Origin: Nesterenkonia sp.
GTDB lineage: Bacteria; Actinomycetota; Actinomycetes; Actinomycetales; Micrococcaceae
NCBI RefSeq assembly: GCF_029265375.1
Contig: NZ_JAJUJJ010000010.1
Coordinates: forward strand, 11,531-75,530
DNA: 64,000 nucleotides
Direction: 5' to 3'
The position numbers and the translations under genes were made by a program. How positions within the stretch are numbered: the first letter of the stretch is position 1; each line of letters begins with the position of its first letter. The notes under the pieces are model-generated. The model saw nothing but the letters and a program-made list of their open reading frames with translations, was not told the origin of the DNA and made no database searches. Of this stretch, positions 3,424-9,322 are shown one piece after another.

Positions 3424-5106
3424 GTGTCACCCGAAAAGCTCACCACCCCACCGGCGCTGAAGAACGGCACTCTGCGGATCGTGCCCCTCGGCGGACTCGG
3501 GGAGGTCGGGCGGAATATGGCCGTCTTTGAGATCGACGGCAAACTGCTCGTCGTCGACTGCGGCGTGCTCTTCCCCGAGGAGGAGCAGCCCGGCGTTGAT
3601 CTGATCCTGCCCGACTTCAGCTACATCGAAGACCGCCTGGACGACATCGTCGGTGTCGTGCTCACCCACGGGCACGAGGACCACATCGGCGCAGTGCCCT
3701 ATCTGCTGCGCAAGAAGGAAGACATCCCGATCATCGGGTCCAAGCTGACCCTGGCCCTGGTGGAGGCCAAGCTGGCCGAGCACCGGATCAACGCCTACAC
3801 GCTCACGGTGCGCGAAGGCGACGTCGAGAACTTCGGTCCCTTCGAATGCGAGTTCATCGCGGTCAACCACTCCATCCCGGATTCACTGGCCGTGTTCATC
3901 CGCACTGCGGCCGGCACCGTGCTGCACACCGGCGACTTCAAGATGGACCAGCTGCCGCTGGACGGACGGATCACCGATCTGCGCCACTTCGCCCGCCTGG
4001 GTGAGGAGGGCGTGGACCTCTACATGTCCGACTCCACCAACGCCCACATCCCCGGGTTCACCACCCCGGAGAAGGAGATCGGGCCGGTGATCGACCAGGT
4101 GATCTCCCGGGCCGAGCGCCGGGTGATCGTGGCCTCCTTCGCTTCCCATATGCACCGCGTGCAGCAGGTGCTCGACGCCGCCGCCGCCCACGGGCGCAAG
4201 GTGGCGTTCGTGGGGCGCTCAATGGTGCGGAACATGTCCATCGCCGCGAAGCTCGGGTACCTGACCATCCCGGAGAACATCCTGATCGATGTGAAGAAGA
4301 TCGATCAGCTGCCCGACCACAAGGTGGTGCTGATGTCCACCGGGTCCCAGGGGGAGCCGATGGCGGCACTGTCCCGGATGGCCAACGGCGACCACCAGGT
4401 CCAGGTGGGCGAGGGCGACACCATCATCCTGGCCTCCTCGCTGATCCCGGGCAACGAGAACTCGGTCTACCGGGTGATCAACGGCCTGATGAAGCTCGGC
4501 GCCGATGTGATCCACAAGGACAACGCGAAGGTGCACGTCTCCGGCCACGCCTCCGCCGGCGAGCTGCTCTACAGCTACAACATCCTCTCCCCGCGCAATG
4601 CTATGCCGGTCCACGGTGAGCACCGGCACCTGATCGCCAACGGCAAGCTGGCCGAGGCCACCGGTGTGGACCCGGAGCGGGTGCTGCTGTGCGAGGACGG
4701 CTCCGTGGTGGACATGCGCGAGGGCCAGGCCCGCATCACCGGACAGATCGAGGCCGGCTACGTCTACGTGGACGGCTCCTCGGTCGGCGAGATCACCGAA
4801 TCCGAGCTGAAGGACCGCAGGGTGCTGGGCGAGGAAGGCTTCATCTCGGTGATCACTGTGGTCAACCGGCAGACCGGCACCATCATCTCCGGTCCGGACA
4901 TCCACGCCCGCGGCGTGGCCGAGGAGGACGAGGTCTTCAAGAGCATCAAGCCCAAGATCGCCAAGGCGCTGACCGAGGCGATCGAGGACAACAAGGAGCA
5001 CACCACTCACCAGCTGCAGCAGATCGTCCGGCGCACCATCGGCTCCTGGGTCAACCGGAAGCTGCGGCGCAAGCCGATGATCGTCCCCGTCGTCGTCGAA
5101 ACCTGA
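3424..5106 (+). CDS. rnj: Ribonuclease J
   Basis: PLGGLGEVGRNM, THGHEDHIG (HxHxDH), HTGDFK, HVSGHA metallo-beta-lactamase/beta-CASP motifs. Confidence 0.97.
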   Translation: MSPEKLTTPPALKNGTLRIVPLGGLGEVGRNMAVFEIDGKLLVVDCGVLFPEEEQPGVDLILPDFSYIEDRLDDIVGVVLTHGHEDHIGAVPYLLRKKEDIPIIGSKLTLALVEAKLAEHRINAYTLTVREGDVENFGPFECEFIAVNHSIPDSLAVFIRTAAGTVLHTGDFKMDQLPLDGRITDLRHFARLGEEGVDLYMSDSTNAHIPGFTTPEKEIGPVIDQVISRAERRVIVASFASHMHRVQQVLDAAAAHGRKVAFVGRSMVRNMSIAAKLGYLTIPENILIDVKKIDQLPDHKVVLMSTGSQGEPMAALSRMANGDHQVQVGEGDTIILASSLIPGNENSVYRVINGLMKLGADVIHKDNAKVHVSGHASAGELLYSYNILSPRNAMPVHGEHRHLIANGKLAEATGVDPERVLLCEDGSVVDMREGQARITGQIEAGYVYVDGSSVGEITESELKDRRVLGEEGFISVITVVNRQTGTIISGPDIHARGVAEEDEVFKSIKPKIAKALTEAIEDNKEHTTHQLQQIVRRTIGSWVNRKLRRKPMIVPVVVET

Positions 5107-5118
5107 ACAACGCCGCCG

Positions 5119-5240
5119 GCCCGCCGCTGCGCGCCCGGTGCCCAGAAACCAGCTCCGCACCGACGTTACGTGTCGAAAGGGCCCAAACTGGTCCTCAAAA
5201 GACCCGAGCTTGGGCCCTTCTGACACGTTGAATCCTGGTG
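5119..5240. repeat. ~120-bp palindromic element, copy 1
   Basis: Near-identical to 5981..6100; contains inverted arms at 5168-5189 and 5207-5228. Confidence 0.9.
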
Positions 5241-5303
5241 CCTTGTCACGCAGGGACTATCCGGTGGCTTAGTCGGCCGCGGAGGGCGATTGCCGCGCGG
5301 GGG

Positions 5304-5326
5304 AGCGACAGCCGTGTCGCTTTTCT
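5304..5326 (+). terminator. Putative intrinsic terminator
   Basis: agcgaca-gccg-tgtcgct stem-loop followed by a T-rich run. Confidence 0.45.
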
Positions 5327-5424
5327 GGCACAAACCGAGGCAGTGTTTCGGTGGCGCTAAGCCTATGTTGAGGTTGGATGGCTAGGTATGAAGCGAGTCT
5401 CGTATCGGCGCAAGGGGGCCGGTC

Positions 5425-5757
5425 ATGAAATCATCAGCCCGCTCTGCGGCACCGATGGTCGTCTTTGCTTTCGTCGTGACCGGATTGGCCGCGATAACAG
5501 GCATCCCGGTAGATGACACTGCCGCGTTTCCCATAATGGCACTATTCGCCTCGGGCATCTTAGCCCTGGTAGCTGCGGTTCAGCATTGGGCAGCACTTCC
5601 GTGGCTTCCTTGGATTGCGCTCGTTGCAGCGGCCGGGGGGTACCTGGCAAATGACGCGCTGTGGATGAATAGTGCTTTCTTTGCGCTTGGGGTTATGGCC
5701 ATCTGGCATGCGCATCAGCGCGAACTTCGTCGGCCTAGGCCAGCCTCACCCGCCTAG
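5425..5757 (+). CDS. Small orphan multi-pass membrane protein (110 aa), lower GC
   Basis: ATG with AAGGGGG RBS; three to four hydrophobic segments; many A/T-ending codons. Confidence 0.65.
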   Translation: MKSSARSAAPMVVFAFVVTGLAAITGIPVDDTAAFPIMALFASGILALVAAVQHWAALPWLPWIALVAAAGGYLANDALWMNSAFFALGVMAIWHAHQRELRRPRPASPA

Positions 5758-5958
5758 AGCACACTCGCCCTCCGCGCACGGCTATCTGCACCACGTTGAC
5801 AGTCCCTGCAGTGTGAATGCCAATTCGTGAAACCGGAACTCGAAGTCAAAATCAGACTGTCGAACGGTGTGCGTTTCATCAGTGCGGGGCGGCCAGCGTT
5901 CATCCATCGGAACCCGCTCGCGCCCATGGCAGCTGCGTCTTTGGGGGCAGCCGCCCAG

Positions 5959-5980
5959 ATCCCGCCCGTAAAGGCGGGAT
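5959..5980. terminator. GC-rich hairpin abutting repeat copy 2
   Basis: atcccgcc-cgtaaa-ggcgggat perfect 8-bp stem; no U-tract. Confidence 0.35.
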
Positions 5981-6100
5981 GCCCGCCGCTGCGCGCCCGT
6001 GCCCAGAAACCACCTCGCACCGACGTTACGTGTCGAAAGGGCCCAAACTGGTCCTCAAAAGACCCGAGTTTGGGCCCTTCTGACACGTTGAATCCCGGTG
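5981..6100. repeat. ~120-bp palindromic element, copy 2
   Basis: 22-bp arms acgtgtcgaaagggcccaaact (6028-6049) and agtttgggcccttctgacacgt (6067-6088). Confidence 0.9.
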
Positions 6101-6208
6101 GGGTGGCGGACTCGCCGGCACAGCGCCCACAGCCACCTACCGGCTGAGACCGGGCTGCGGGCGCGTTGATGCGGCGACACGCCGGTCCTGGCGGCTAAGT
6201 TAGCACCT

Positions 6209-9200
6209 ATGGCGACACGTACTTCCCCCTCGCGGTCGGCCAGCAAGAAGAGCACTTCTGGCAAAGGCCGCGCGACGACGTCGAAAAAGAGCTCCACCCC
6301 GGAGCGCGGCAATCTGCTGTTCCTTGCCGCCCGGGGAATCTGGCTCGCCCTGGCCACCCCGGTGGGCGGAGCTGTCCGCAGCCTCGGCCGGCAGGTGAAG
6401 ATCCACCCCGATGACCGCCGCGACGGCGCCGGCCTGGTCTTCTTCCTGCTGGCCGGCCTCACCGCCGTGGTCGACTGGTGGGGAGCGCGCAACTGGGACC
6501 ACTGGATCTCTGACGTGGTCCACCGCACCACCGCGGGCACCTTCGGCTGGGCCTCGGTGATCCTGCCGCTGGTGCTGCTGATCACCGCCTTCCGCTACTT
6601 CCGCACCCCGCAGGAGCACGAAGCCAACGGCCGCGTCGCCATCGGCCTGAGCATCGTGCTGGCCTCCGCCGCCGGAATGGCCCATCTGGCCGCGGGAATG
6701 CCGACCATCAACGAGATCTTCGACGCCGGGGAGACCGGTGGCTTCGAATCCATGCTCACCTCCGGAGGCATCCTCGGCTACCTGGTGGTGGTCCCCATGG
6801 CCTCCCTTGTCACCCAGTACCCGGTCTGGGCCATCCTCGGAGTGACCCTGGCCGCCGGCCTGCTGGTGCTCACCGACACCCCGGTCCGCCGCATCCCCGA
6901 ACGCATCACCGTGGCCCGGGACTACATCATCGGCGAACCCGCAGAGCGTCCCGCCCCGCAGCACCGGGAGATCCCGCACGGAGGAGCCGCTCAGCAGCCG
7001 GATGCTGAGTACACCGACGACGCCGGCTCCGCCGCACGTGCCCCACGGCCCAAGCGCGCCAAGGGCGCAGAGAAGTCCCAGCGGCCCAGCTTCTTCGCCC
7101 GCATCTCCGAGTCCGCAGGACTCAGCGGCGGCGCTGATGAGCCGGCTGCCGAGACCGCGCCGACCGAGGTCTTCAACCACGACGACGCCGCCCGCGCCGC
7201 CGAAGGTGCCTACGACTCCCCAGTCTTCAGCGAGCCCGGGCAGGACGAGCCCCGCCCCAAGCCGGGCCAGAAGCGTCCCACCAAGCAGGAGAAGGAGATC
7301 GCCGCCGCCAAGCGCGCAGCCGGCATCGAGGACCAGGAGAGCTCCGCCACCGGCCCGCAGTCCCGCGCGGAAGCACGCTCCCAGACCAGCTCCCGCAGCG
7401 AGGCGTCCACGCCGAAGCCCACCACGGTGCCCGAGGCCCCGGCCCCGGCCAGCGATCTGCCGGTGCGCAGCGAGCAGCTGGAGCTCTCCGGAGACGTCAC
7501 CTACACCCTGCCTGAACAGTCGCTGCTGCCCGCCGGCCCCCCGCCCAAGGAGAGCTCGGACGCCAACGCGGAGATCGTCGCCGCGCTGGACAAGACGTTC
7601 AGCCAATTCAAGGTCGACGCCGAAGTCACCGGCTTCTCCCGCGGCCCCACAGTCACCCGGTACGAGATCGAGCTGGCCCCGGGAACCAAGGTGGAGAAGG
7701 TCACCTCCCTGGAGAAGAACATCGCCTATGCGGTGGCCTCCAATGAGGTGCGCATCCTCTCGCCGATCCCCGGAAAGTCCGCCATCGGCATCGAGATCCC
7801 CAACCGGGACAAGGAAGTCGTGGCACTCGGCGATGTGCTGCGCTCCAACGCCGCGCGCAAGACCGACCACCCCATGGTGATGGGCGTGGGCAAGGACGTC
7901 GAAGGCGGCTACGTCATCGCCAACCTCGCCAAGATGCCCCACCTGCTGGTGGCCGGCGCCACCGGCGCAGGCAAGTCAGCCTTCATCAACTCGATGATCA
8001 CCTCGGTGCTCATGCGCGCCACCCCGGACGAGGTGCGCATGGTCATGGTGGACCCCAAGCGCGTGGAGCTCACCGCCTATGAGGGCATCCCGCACCTGGT
8101 GACCCCCATCATCACCGAGCCGAAGAAGGCCGCCGAAGCGCTCGAATGGGTCGTCAAGGAGATGGACAACCGCTACGACGACCTCTCCCACTTCGGATTC
8201 AAGCACGTCAACGACTTCAACAAGGCCGTGCGCGCCGGCAAGATCCAACTGCCCCCGGACTCCAAGCGGGTGCTGCGGCCCTACCCGTACCTGCTGGTGA
8301 TCGTCGACGAGCTGGCCGACCTGATGATGGTCGCCCCGCGGGACGTGGAGGACTCGATCGTCCGCATCACCCAGCTGGCCCGTGCCGCCGGCATCCACCT
8401 GGTGCTGGCCACCCAGCGGCCCAGCGTGAACGTGGTCACCGGCCTGATCAAGGCCAATGTGCCCTCCCGCATGGCGTTCGCCACCTCCTCGGCCACCGAC
8501 TCCCGCGTGGTGCTGGACTCGGTGGGCGCAGAGAAGCTGCTGGGCCAGGGTGATGCGCTGTTCCTGCCGATGGGCAGCGCCAAACCGATGCGCGTCCAGG
8601 GCGCCTGGGTCAACGAGTCCGAGGTCGAAGCCGTCGTCGCACACGTGAAGTCCCAGCTGCAGGCCCAGTACCGCGAGGACGCAGTGGCGGCCATGGAGCC
8701 GAAGAAGAAGCAGATCGACGAGGACATCGGAGACGACCTGGAGCTGCTGCTGGCGGCCACCGAGCTGGTGGTCACCACTCAGTTCGGCTCCACCTCCATG
8801 CTGCAGCGCAAGCTGCGCGTCGGCTTCGCCAAGGCCGGCCGGCTCATGGACCTCATGGAGTCCCGCGGCGTGGTCGGACCCTCCGAAGGCTCCAAGGCCC
8901 GCGATGTGCTGGTCGCCCCGGACGAGCTCCCCGAGGTGCTGGCCACCATCAAGGGGGAGGACGCGCCCAAGCCCTATGAGGAGGCCGTGGTCACCGAGGA
9001 GAACGACCAGGTCCAGCCCGTGGCCGAGGCGCCCCCAGGTGCCCCGGCGCAGAGCCAGCCCTCATCACACCCCGACCCGCAGGCAGCCCCGGGGTCTGAC
9101 ACCGGTCAGCCGACGTCGTCGGTTCCCTCCCAGCCGGGGGCACCGGAACCCGGGTACGACGACGCCGCCGCGGGGCACCCGCAGCCCACCGAGGACTACG

Positions 9201-9322
9201 GGGCCGACTTGATCGCACGGGATATGGCCGAGCGCACCCGGGGACTGCCGGAGGCCGGCGAGTACTACGACGGTCACGACACCACCAGCTCCGAGGACGC
9301 CTGGCAGCTCACCGGACGCTGA
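6209..9322 (+). CDS. ftsK: DNA translocase FtsK
   Basis: N-terminal TM domain, long linker, GATGAGKS Walker [10 protein letters not shown] Walker B, ATQRPS, gamma domain [28 protein letters not shown]7-ATG. Confidence 0.97.

Follow-up and report, generated by a model that had tools for sequence, protein, structure and literature searches.

Direct Repeats with a REPIN-Like Hairpin Enclose a Foreign Membrane Protein Gene between rnj and ftsK in a Nesterenkonia Genome

In a 64,000-nucleotide stretch of a Nesterenkonia genome (hereafter the window, C44:11531-75530 of the draft assembly that we label G000; 2.72 Mb, 58 contigs, 67% G+C), the interval between rnj and ftsK holds two direct repeats that enclose 740 bp of atypical DNA. 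We propose with moderate confidence that this structure goes back to a circular mobile DNA, which entered the chromosome through a single crossover and then decayed, leaving a scar similar to a cis-mobilizable element (CIME). A preliminary description of the window had put forward an undescribed system of cassette insertion directed by hairpins. This apparent new system resolves into two ordinary and separable phenomena, a species-specific family of hairpins resembling the REPINs (doublets of repetitive extragenic palindromic (REP) sequences that form hairpins) in an actinobacterium without REP-associated tyrosine transposase (RAYT), and what appears to be a remnant of an integrative element flanked by attachment (att) sites. 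The cargo of the insert, P0001, belongs to a rare and unannotated family of four-helix membrane proteins, for which the relatives described here provide a first genomic context in small plasmids, insertion sequences (IS), and elements similar to the actinomycete integrative and conjugative elements (AICE) of Micrococcaceae.

Results

The Direct Repeats

The first copy of the repeat (5119-5240, 122 nt, plus strand, attL-like) begins 12 nt past the rnj stop codon and the second (5981-6100, 120 nt, plus strand, attR-like) ends 108 nt ahead of ftsK, with a period of 861/862 nt in the repeat search. When aligned locally, the copies were identical at 117 positions and differed by three substitutions and two one-base indels (96% identity), and the match of one to the other had an E value of 1e-49 in a whole-genome BLAST. 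Each copy carries an imperfect hairpin with 22-nt arms that are 86-91% complementary. The arms of copy 1 lie at 5168-5189 and 5207-5228 around a 17-nt loop, with an outer stem CACCG/TGGTG, and those of copy 2 at 6028-6049 and 6067-6088. The folding z-scores were -4.4 to -5.9 and none of 200 shuffled sequences folded equally well. The near-identical repeats and their hairpins had been noticed in the preliminary description, and repeat search, alignment, and folds bore them out.

The same description had taken the whole ~120 bp for a palindromic element, which holds for the inner ~84 nt only. This inner part (5157-5240 in copy 1, about 6017-6100 in copy 2) is a member of a dispersed palindrome family, as judged from the nhmmer family, the fold, and a covariance model, R1, that gave 82 bits for copy 1 and 90 bits for copy 2. 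Copy 2 has the family-consensus base at both sites where the copies differ within the palindrome. The first ~37 nt of the repeat (5119-5155 in copy 1, plus strand) are found elsewhere in the genome only in copy 2, and the other genomic matches obtained by BLAST and nhmmer spanned at most positions 30-117 of the 122. Because this unique flank lies inside the repeat, we conclude that one chromosomal segment was duplicated and that the repeats are not two independent insertions of an element. The duplicated segment held one palindrome copy already before the duplication. On its right side, the repeat ends exactly at the outer stem of the palindrome (5240 and 6100). No tRNA or tmRNA was found in the repeat region, and an Rfam scan of 4900-6400 returned only sub-threshold hairpin look-alikes. 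The heptamer GTTGAAT, present at 5227-5233 and 6087-6093, happens to match the integron core GTTRRRY.

The Insert and Its Cargo Gene

The insert between the repeats (5241-5980, 740 bp, plus strand) has a G+C content of 0.61, versus 0.67 for the genome, and is single-copy in the assembly. Its sole credible open reading frame (ORF) is P0001 (5425-5757, plus strand), which would encode a protein of 110 aa with four hydrophobic segments; the remaining ORFs had no Pfam matches. The G+C content at third codon positions (GC3) is 0.59 for P0001, versus 0.92 for rnj and 0.90 for ftsK, and these values argue for a real gene of foreign origin that was acquired horizontally. Upstream of P0001, folding of 5270-5330 revealed a terminator-like hairpin followed by TTTTCT (~5295-5329, plus strand), which a simple terminator scan did not flag. 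Between this hairpin and the ORF lies a 13-nt motif, CTATGTTGAGGTT (5363-5375, plus strand), that is conserved upstream of the homologue in the congener G051 (see below); it may hold a -10 region (TATGTT) and would then act as a promoter. Downstream of P0001 are ~200 nt to which no feature could be assigned (5758-5956; ORFs with flat GC3 and no Pfam matches, no similarity to the G051, G002, and plasmid loci presented below) and an 8-bp G+C-rich hairpin abutting repeat copy 2 (5959-5980), whose 26.6 bits with Rfam CC0196 are below the gathering score of 35 and reflect the hairpin only. A 23-nt inverted repeat around the ORF (5270-5292/5762-5784) was discarded, since its 19 matches out of 23 were equalled by 15 of 200 shuffles.

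The preliminary description had listed a terminator, a membrane gene, an unexplained stretch, and a hairpin within ~740 bp of atypical DNA that lacked integrase and transposase. All these parts were found, and neither enzyme was detected in the rnj-ftsK interval by ORF and Pfam scans. PF00589 had no match in the window, the nearest on the contig being ~67 kb off. Remnants of the G051 integration and transfer genes, or of the gene for the 201/205-aa neighbour described below, were not found inside the insert. Outside the ORF, the insert had no match in 36 congeners, plasmids, and phages, and no homologues of the whole insert were found in plasmids, phages, and JGI metagenomes.

P0001 Relatives in Other Genomes

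No match to P0001 was obtained by exact-protein look-up, by a word-based protein search, or in Pfam and NCBIfam, and PHROG gave no informative match. When 1.84 billion representative proteins were scanned in full with HMMER, only 16 relatives were recovered; they aligned over their full length, with W55, P62, H95, and E100 conserved, and the alignment of this 16-member family is too divergent to serve as a profile against metagenomes. Among 401 Micrococcaceae genomes its distribution is patchy, with ~14 clear matches in a few genera.

The members of the family keep company with mobile elements. One homologue, P0002 (60% identical to P0001), is encoded in a Nesterenkonia metagenome-assembled genome, G051, in the order tyrosine integrase, 563-aa FtsK/SpoIIIE- and TraB-like protein, P0002, secreted 205-aa protein, and second integrase-like gene, which together make up an AICE-like module. 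One distant member is found on a 3.3-kb contig together with a PF03090 replicase and a helix-turn-helix (HTH) protein (L108, Logan SRR9276336, 3346 nt). The contig has identical 30-nt ends and rotated starts across several runs and therefore represents a small circular plasmid. Another member adjoins an rve-type transposase of an IS. Two other leads were rejected: the start of the repeat shares 12 nt with the 3' end of the P0002 gene, which is no more than chance would give (E = 0.05), and the direct repeats around family genes in the genomes G416 and G334 are paralogous coding sequence and not att sites.

The architecture of the rnj-ftsK locus has an exact parallel at a tRNA-Phe gene of another Nesterenkonia species, G002 (L122:1112-2885; C1 ~2,224,200-2,226,000). 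A family member and a 201-aa gene are contained there in a 1.5-kb insert of 57% G+C, flanked by direct repeats of ~130 nt that are 98-99% identical. These repeats start in the anticodon loop of tRNA-Phe and span the terminator hairpin and the final codons of a convergent gene. No integrase was found inside the insert, which also contains an apparent transposase fragment, read from the translated sequence. We interpret the repeats as the canonical attL and attR of an integrase-borne element that was probably reduced to its cargo, a CIME-like structure and the closest parallel to the present locus.

The 201-aa neighbour in G002 is 47% identical to the 205-aa neighbour in G051. Both (L122:1850-2455 and L043:4755-5372, respectively) carry a Sec signal peptide, and their C-terminal half is rich in Gly, Trp, and Cys. 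On a speculative note, the pair of a ~200-aa secreted protein and a P0001-family protein resembles a toxin or bacteriocin with its membrane immunity protein.

A prophage-like element of G000 is also located at tRNA-Phe (L133, C7:1-16117), which shows that this gene is actively used for integration in the genus. It encodes an integrase (C7:14573-15826), an ImmA/IrrE-like protease, RecT, and a C5 cytosine methylase. Beside the prophage integrase, C7:16064-16160 holds a 52-nt partial tRNA-Phe and the native terminator hairpin, and the intact tRNA-Phe of G000 is at the end of contig C22 (L134, C22:27181-27255).

A Dispersed Family of Palindromes

An iterated nhmmer search with the inner ~80-84 nt of the repeat found 21 copies in G000, including the two at rnj-ftsK. 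The family consensus consists of an arm, ACGTGYCGGAAGGGCCCAAACT, a variable 17-nt loop, and the complementary arm. All 21 copies are complete doublets and all are intergenic, mostly 7-120 nt from gene ends, between convergent, tandem, and some divergent genes. RNAalifold predicted 16 consensus pairs, and compensatory changes occur at four of these. The 21 copies were used to build a covariance model, with which they score 50-90 bits; with the same model, 26 of 36 other Nesterenkonia species had no copy and the other 10 had 1-5 weak copies (26-43 bits). At the one orthologous site that was compared, congeners had unrelated hairpins or none, and the sites were too diverged to define target-site duplications. 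These properties point to a hairpin family, REPIN-like or similar to the tuberculosis rho-independent terminators (TRIT), that expanded within the species.

Neither solo arms nor a parent IS with the palindrome at its ends was found in the genome when up to four mismatches were allowed. The RAYT/Y1 HUH transposase PF01797 had no match in the draft genome (58 contigs), and a control search matched 6 of 14 reference genomes. The other 19 copies all stand alone and enclose no cargo; on any one contig, nearest neighbours are at least 7.8 kb apart. They adjoin ordinary genes with high GC3. A link between palindrome copies and foreign DNA was considered and rejected, the apparent gaps beside several copies being filled by real genes with high GC3. 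One exception was observed at C11:82364-83207 (L106:1565-2408), where 844 nt with 64% G+C and no credible ORF of high GC3 directly adjoin a palindrome copy. Counting the copies and their neighbours genome-wide, with a search for HUH enzymes, had been suggested in the preliminary description as a way to recognize cassette insertion. The outcome spoke against it, the 21 copies including no other pair and the genome no HUH/Y1 transposase.

Flanking Genes and the Spacer in Congeners

The interval is bounded on the left by rnj (3424-5106, plus strand), coding for RNase J (Pfam RNase_J_b_CASP, 1.6e-51; RNase_J_C; Lactamase_B), and on the right by ftsK (6209-9322, plus strand; Pfam FtsK_SpoIIIE, 3.1e-65; FtsK_alpha, FtsK_gamma, FtsK_4TM). 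Between repeat copy 2 and ftsK is the native ftsK upstream region (6101-6208, plus strand). Comparison of the interval in 15 congeners showed that its last ~55 nt (6150-6208) are conserved genus-wide, with the pattern GCGCGT..CGGCGACACGC..GGCTAAGTT just 5' of the ATG; they probably serve as promoter or leader of ftsK.

In 21 of 24 congeners, the spacer between rnj and ftsK measures 60-210 nt and holds an ordinary terminator hairpin and the conserved ftsK upstream region. Neither the repeat nor the cargo insert was found in this spacer in any of the 24. The preliminary description had looked to relatives for an empty site, or for different cargo between the repeats as in a cassette array. Short spacers free of repeat and cargo were what we observed, and no congener had different cargo between the same repeats.

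The three remaining congeners (G007, G009, and G010) have ~1.5 kb in the spacer. In G007, the gene of an M20-family peptidase occupies it on the opposite strand (L095:498-1712), with no flanking repeats detected. In G009 and G010 it carries a gene of 370-400 aa without Pfam match, the C-terminus of which resembles DUF559/Vsr-like endonucleases, between inverted copies of a different, ~70-nt palindrome family (L094:352-441 and ~1700-1790 in G009; L093:385-457 and 1672-1744 in G010). These flanking palindromes are 73 nt long, 81% identical, and have reverse-complementary loops, and G010 has ~4 copies of this family in total, two of them flanking the spacer gene. The gene with its flanking palindromes may be a small mobile unit. 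The comparison with congeners indicates that the arrangement in the window is a lineage-specific insertion in a repeatedly hit spacer, and it singles out the stretch between rnj and ftsK as a place where insertions recur in Nesterenkonia.

Discussion

Proposed Integration by a Single Crossover

The reading that we favour starts from a circular integrative element, of AICE or plasmid type, that would have entered the rnj-ftsK spacer through one reciprocal crossover of the Campbell type, within a segment of ~120 nt common to circle and chromosome. Such an event would duplicate the shared segment and leave an attL-like copy (5119-5240) and an attR-like copy (5981-6100) on either side of the incoming DNA. 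The shared segment would be the native region 3' of rnj, already with one REPIN-like palindrome, which is why both repeats carry the hairpin. A single crossover within this segment yields the observed order of repeat, insert, and repeat, with the unique flank and the palindrome in each repeat. The circle could have held the segment as the att identity segment of a lineage-adapted element, in which case a tyrosine integrase might have acted, or as host DNA taken up by an aberrant excision and used later for homologous integration by RecA. Later deletions would have removed the integration and transfer genes, and one cargo gene with promoter- and terminator-like signals of its own would remain. 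The cargo is shared with integrase-bearing relatives (the G051 module and, between att repeats, the G002 insert), which points to descent from an intact element. The preliminary description came close to this explanation when it mentioned, as a second option, a scar left by a small mobile element whose ends were duplicated, a foreign insert within a duplicated hairpin-bearing segment being what is seen.

Several observations weigh against a decayed integrated element. Neither the insert nor its flanks showed an integrase, an excisionase, or a remnant of either. G000 has seven tyrosine recombinases, five of them non-Xer; all lie elsewhere and none resembles the G051 integrase. The site is neither a tRNA gene nor another known att target, and an intact element that uses it was not found in the genus, in plasmids, in phages, or in JGI metagenomes. 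The palindrome is nearly restricted to the species, so that the circle must already have carried DNA of the host lineage, and this in turn requires prior residence at the site or an aberrant excision. It would also be somewhat surprising that two independent decays, in G000 and in G002, kept the same gene family unless the gene is selected for. The genomes compared included no strain of the same species that could show the site empty or otherwise occupied.

Other Explanations

As the main rival reading, the duplication could have arisen in situ during replication or repair, through template switching, microhomology-mediated break-induced replication (MMBIR), or capture by nonhomologous end joining (NHEJ) at the long palindrome, and we consider this unlikely. 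A fork would stall or break at the palindrome, ~740 nt would be copied from an ectopic template, for example, a transient plasmid, and the end would re-engage the chromosome ~120 nt upstream, so that the segment 3' of rnj is copied twice. That the repeat ends on the right just at the outer stem of the palindrome is expected if the hairpin was the point of stalling or breakage, the host-lineage-specific sequence of the repeat is explained without a pre-adapted circle, and the small plasmids with P0001-family genes could have served as the template. No clear microhomology is seen at either junction, however, a donor copy of the insert is absent from the assembly, and the 4% divergence of the copies implies an old event or copies from two alleles; nor does such a route predict the textbook tRNA att duplication of G002. 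An artefact of assembly, with the insert mis-joined between two representations of a single repeat, is scarcely credible. The assembly is a short-read draft in 58 contigs, but the copies differ at five positions, two of them indels, the contig that contains them is 92 kb long, congeners have collinear flanks, and the insert is nowhere else in the assembly.

It is also conceivable, and in our view improbable, that the att repeat and the P0001-family gene together form a mobile unit, a nonautonomous mini-integrative element of the Micrococcaceae with hairpin-bearing sites of 120-135 nt. Like an integrative mobilizable element (IME), a CIME, or a satellite, it would rely for its movement on an integrase supplied in trans by an AICE or prophage, either resident or newly arrived, and it would be kept because the four-helix protein confers immunity or exclusion, for instance, against the ~200-aa secreted neighbour of G002 and G051. 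Two independent minimal units in two Nesterenkonia species, with the same gene family between hairpin-containing repeats of 120-135 nt and without integrase, would fit this idea, as would the activity of tRNA-Phe, the site used in G002, as an integration site of the G000 prophage. The two units, however, occupy unrelated sites, their repeats have no sequence in common, and their inserts share nothing beyond the ORF. The apparent transposase fragment of G002 suggests decay, and just two cases are known, with neither a circular form nor a polymorphism observed. If true, a mini-element of 0.86 kb would rank among the smallest integrative mobilizable elements known. The dedicated cassette capture of the preliminary description, in which an HUH or integron-type enzyme would use dispersed palindromes as docking sites in the manner of attC or REP sequences, is more improbable still. 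The hairpins are indeed long, conserved, and dispersed in 21 copies, GTTGAAT fits GTTRRRY, and the spacer gene of G009 and G010 is flanked by another palindrome family. Against this, the repeat runs past the palindrome into unique sequence, the 19 remaining copies are solitary and bracket nothing, and the genome has no Y1/HUH transposase, no integrase nearby, and no solo arms or parent IS. The cargo is self-contained, with its own expression signals, in one unit and no array, and the P0001 family travels with ordinary mobile elements, once between tRNA-borne att repeats. An undescribed hairpin-directed system finds no support in these data.

The function of P0001 is possibly that of a Spd-like (spread) protein, or else immunity or exclusion. 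That P0001-family genes outlast the decay of the surrounding element suggests that their function is under selection, as exclusion or immunity would be.

Comparison with Known Systems

Among hairpin-bearing systems, the cassettes of integrons share with the locus an imperfect palindrome (attC) at the boundaries of a single-gene unit. They differ in that the locus has no IntI, attI, Pc, or array, that the R''/R' core pair is absent, that the cargo has a promoter-like signal, and that the repeat holds unique, nonpalindromic sequence. The palindrome arms act as inverted repeats, as those of a miniature inverted-repeat transposable element (MITE) would, but no IS with these ends was found with up to four mismatches. 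Elements of the IS200/IS605 type and palindrome-associated transposable elements (PATE) have subterminal hairpins at both ends and a Y1 transposase (TnpA) that acts in cis or in trans. The locus has hairpins at both ends, in direct orientation, but the genome has no Y1 transposase, and unlike the left-end and right-end (LE/RE) pattern of IS200/IS605, the identity here extends over a full 120 nt that include sequence outside the hairpin. The repeat, with its 22-nt arms and 17-nt loop, also does not resemble, by eye, the 11-6-11 layout of dif, the 28-bp XerC/XerD site that bounds Xer-dependent dif modules and IMEX.

The palindromes by themselves are closest to two families of dispersed hairpins. 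REP and REPIN elements are mobilised by RAYT transposases, and REPINs are best described in Proteobacteria (PMC3116915, PMC3337134). The 84-nt unit resembles them as an inverted doublet with 22-26-nt arms, a short spacer, and a long hairpin, and it is strictly intergenic, dispersed, always complete, and lineage-specific. Unlike REPINs, it occurs in a genome without RAYT (PF01797) and in 21 copies only, and the family explains the hairpin but not the duplication. The TRIT of Mycobacterium tuberculosis is a palindromic terminator motif with 147 copies tightly placed around stop codons (PMC3152330). It is likewise an actinobacterial, genus-restricted, bidirectional hairpin of conserved sequence near gene ends. 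The 21 copies described here differ in their distance from gene ends, 7-120 nt, and in that some separate divergent genes, and their role as terminators is putative.

The insertion as a whole compares best with integrative elements. AICEs use att identity segments for their integration, and small hydrophobic Spd proteins are among the products that they encode (PMC2440964). The locus is similar to AICEs such as pSAM2, SLP1, and pMEA300 in its actinobacterial host and in the duplication of an identity segment that their integration entails, and in G051 a tyrosine integrase and a TraB/FtsK-like translocase precede the homologue, which thus has the place where AICEs carry Spd proteins. The identity segment of SLP1 measures ~112 bp, which is similar to the 120-135 nt found here. 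Unlike AICEs, the locus has no int, xis, rep, or tra gene left in the window and its target is not a tRNA gene; since Nesterenkonia is not mycelial, a role of P0001 in "spread" is doubtful. CIMEs were defined in Streptococcus as decayed integrative and conjugative elements (ICE) or IMEs that retain attL and attR without integration and transfer genes (PMC5704250). The rnj-ftsK locus departs from them in its site, an intergenic terminator region 12 nt past rnj and not the 3' end of a tRNA or other gene, in having no cognate integrase or intact element identified for this site, and in its exceptionally small size of 0.86 kb. It agrees with them in presenting foreign DNA between direct repeats, free of integrase and transfer genes, with a cargo related to genes of an intact element (G051), and it has in G002 a sibling case at the 3' end of a tRNA gene.

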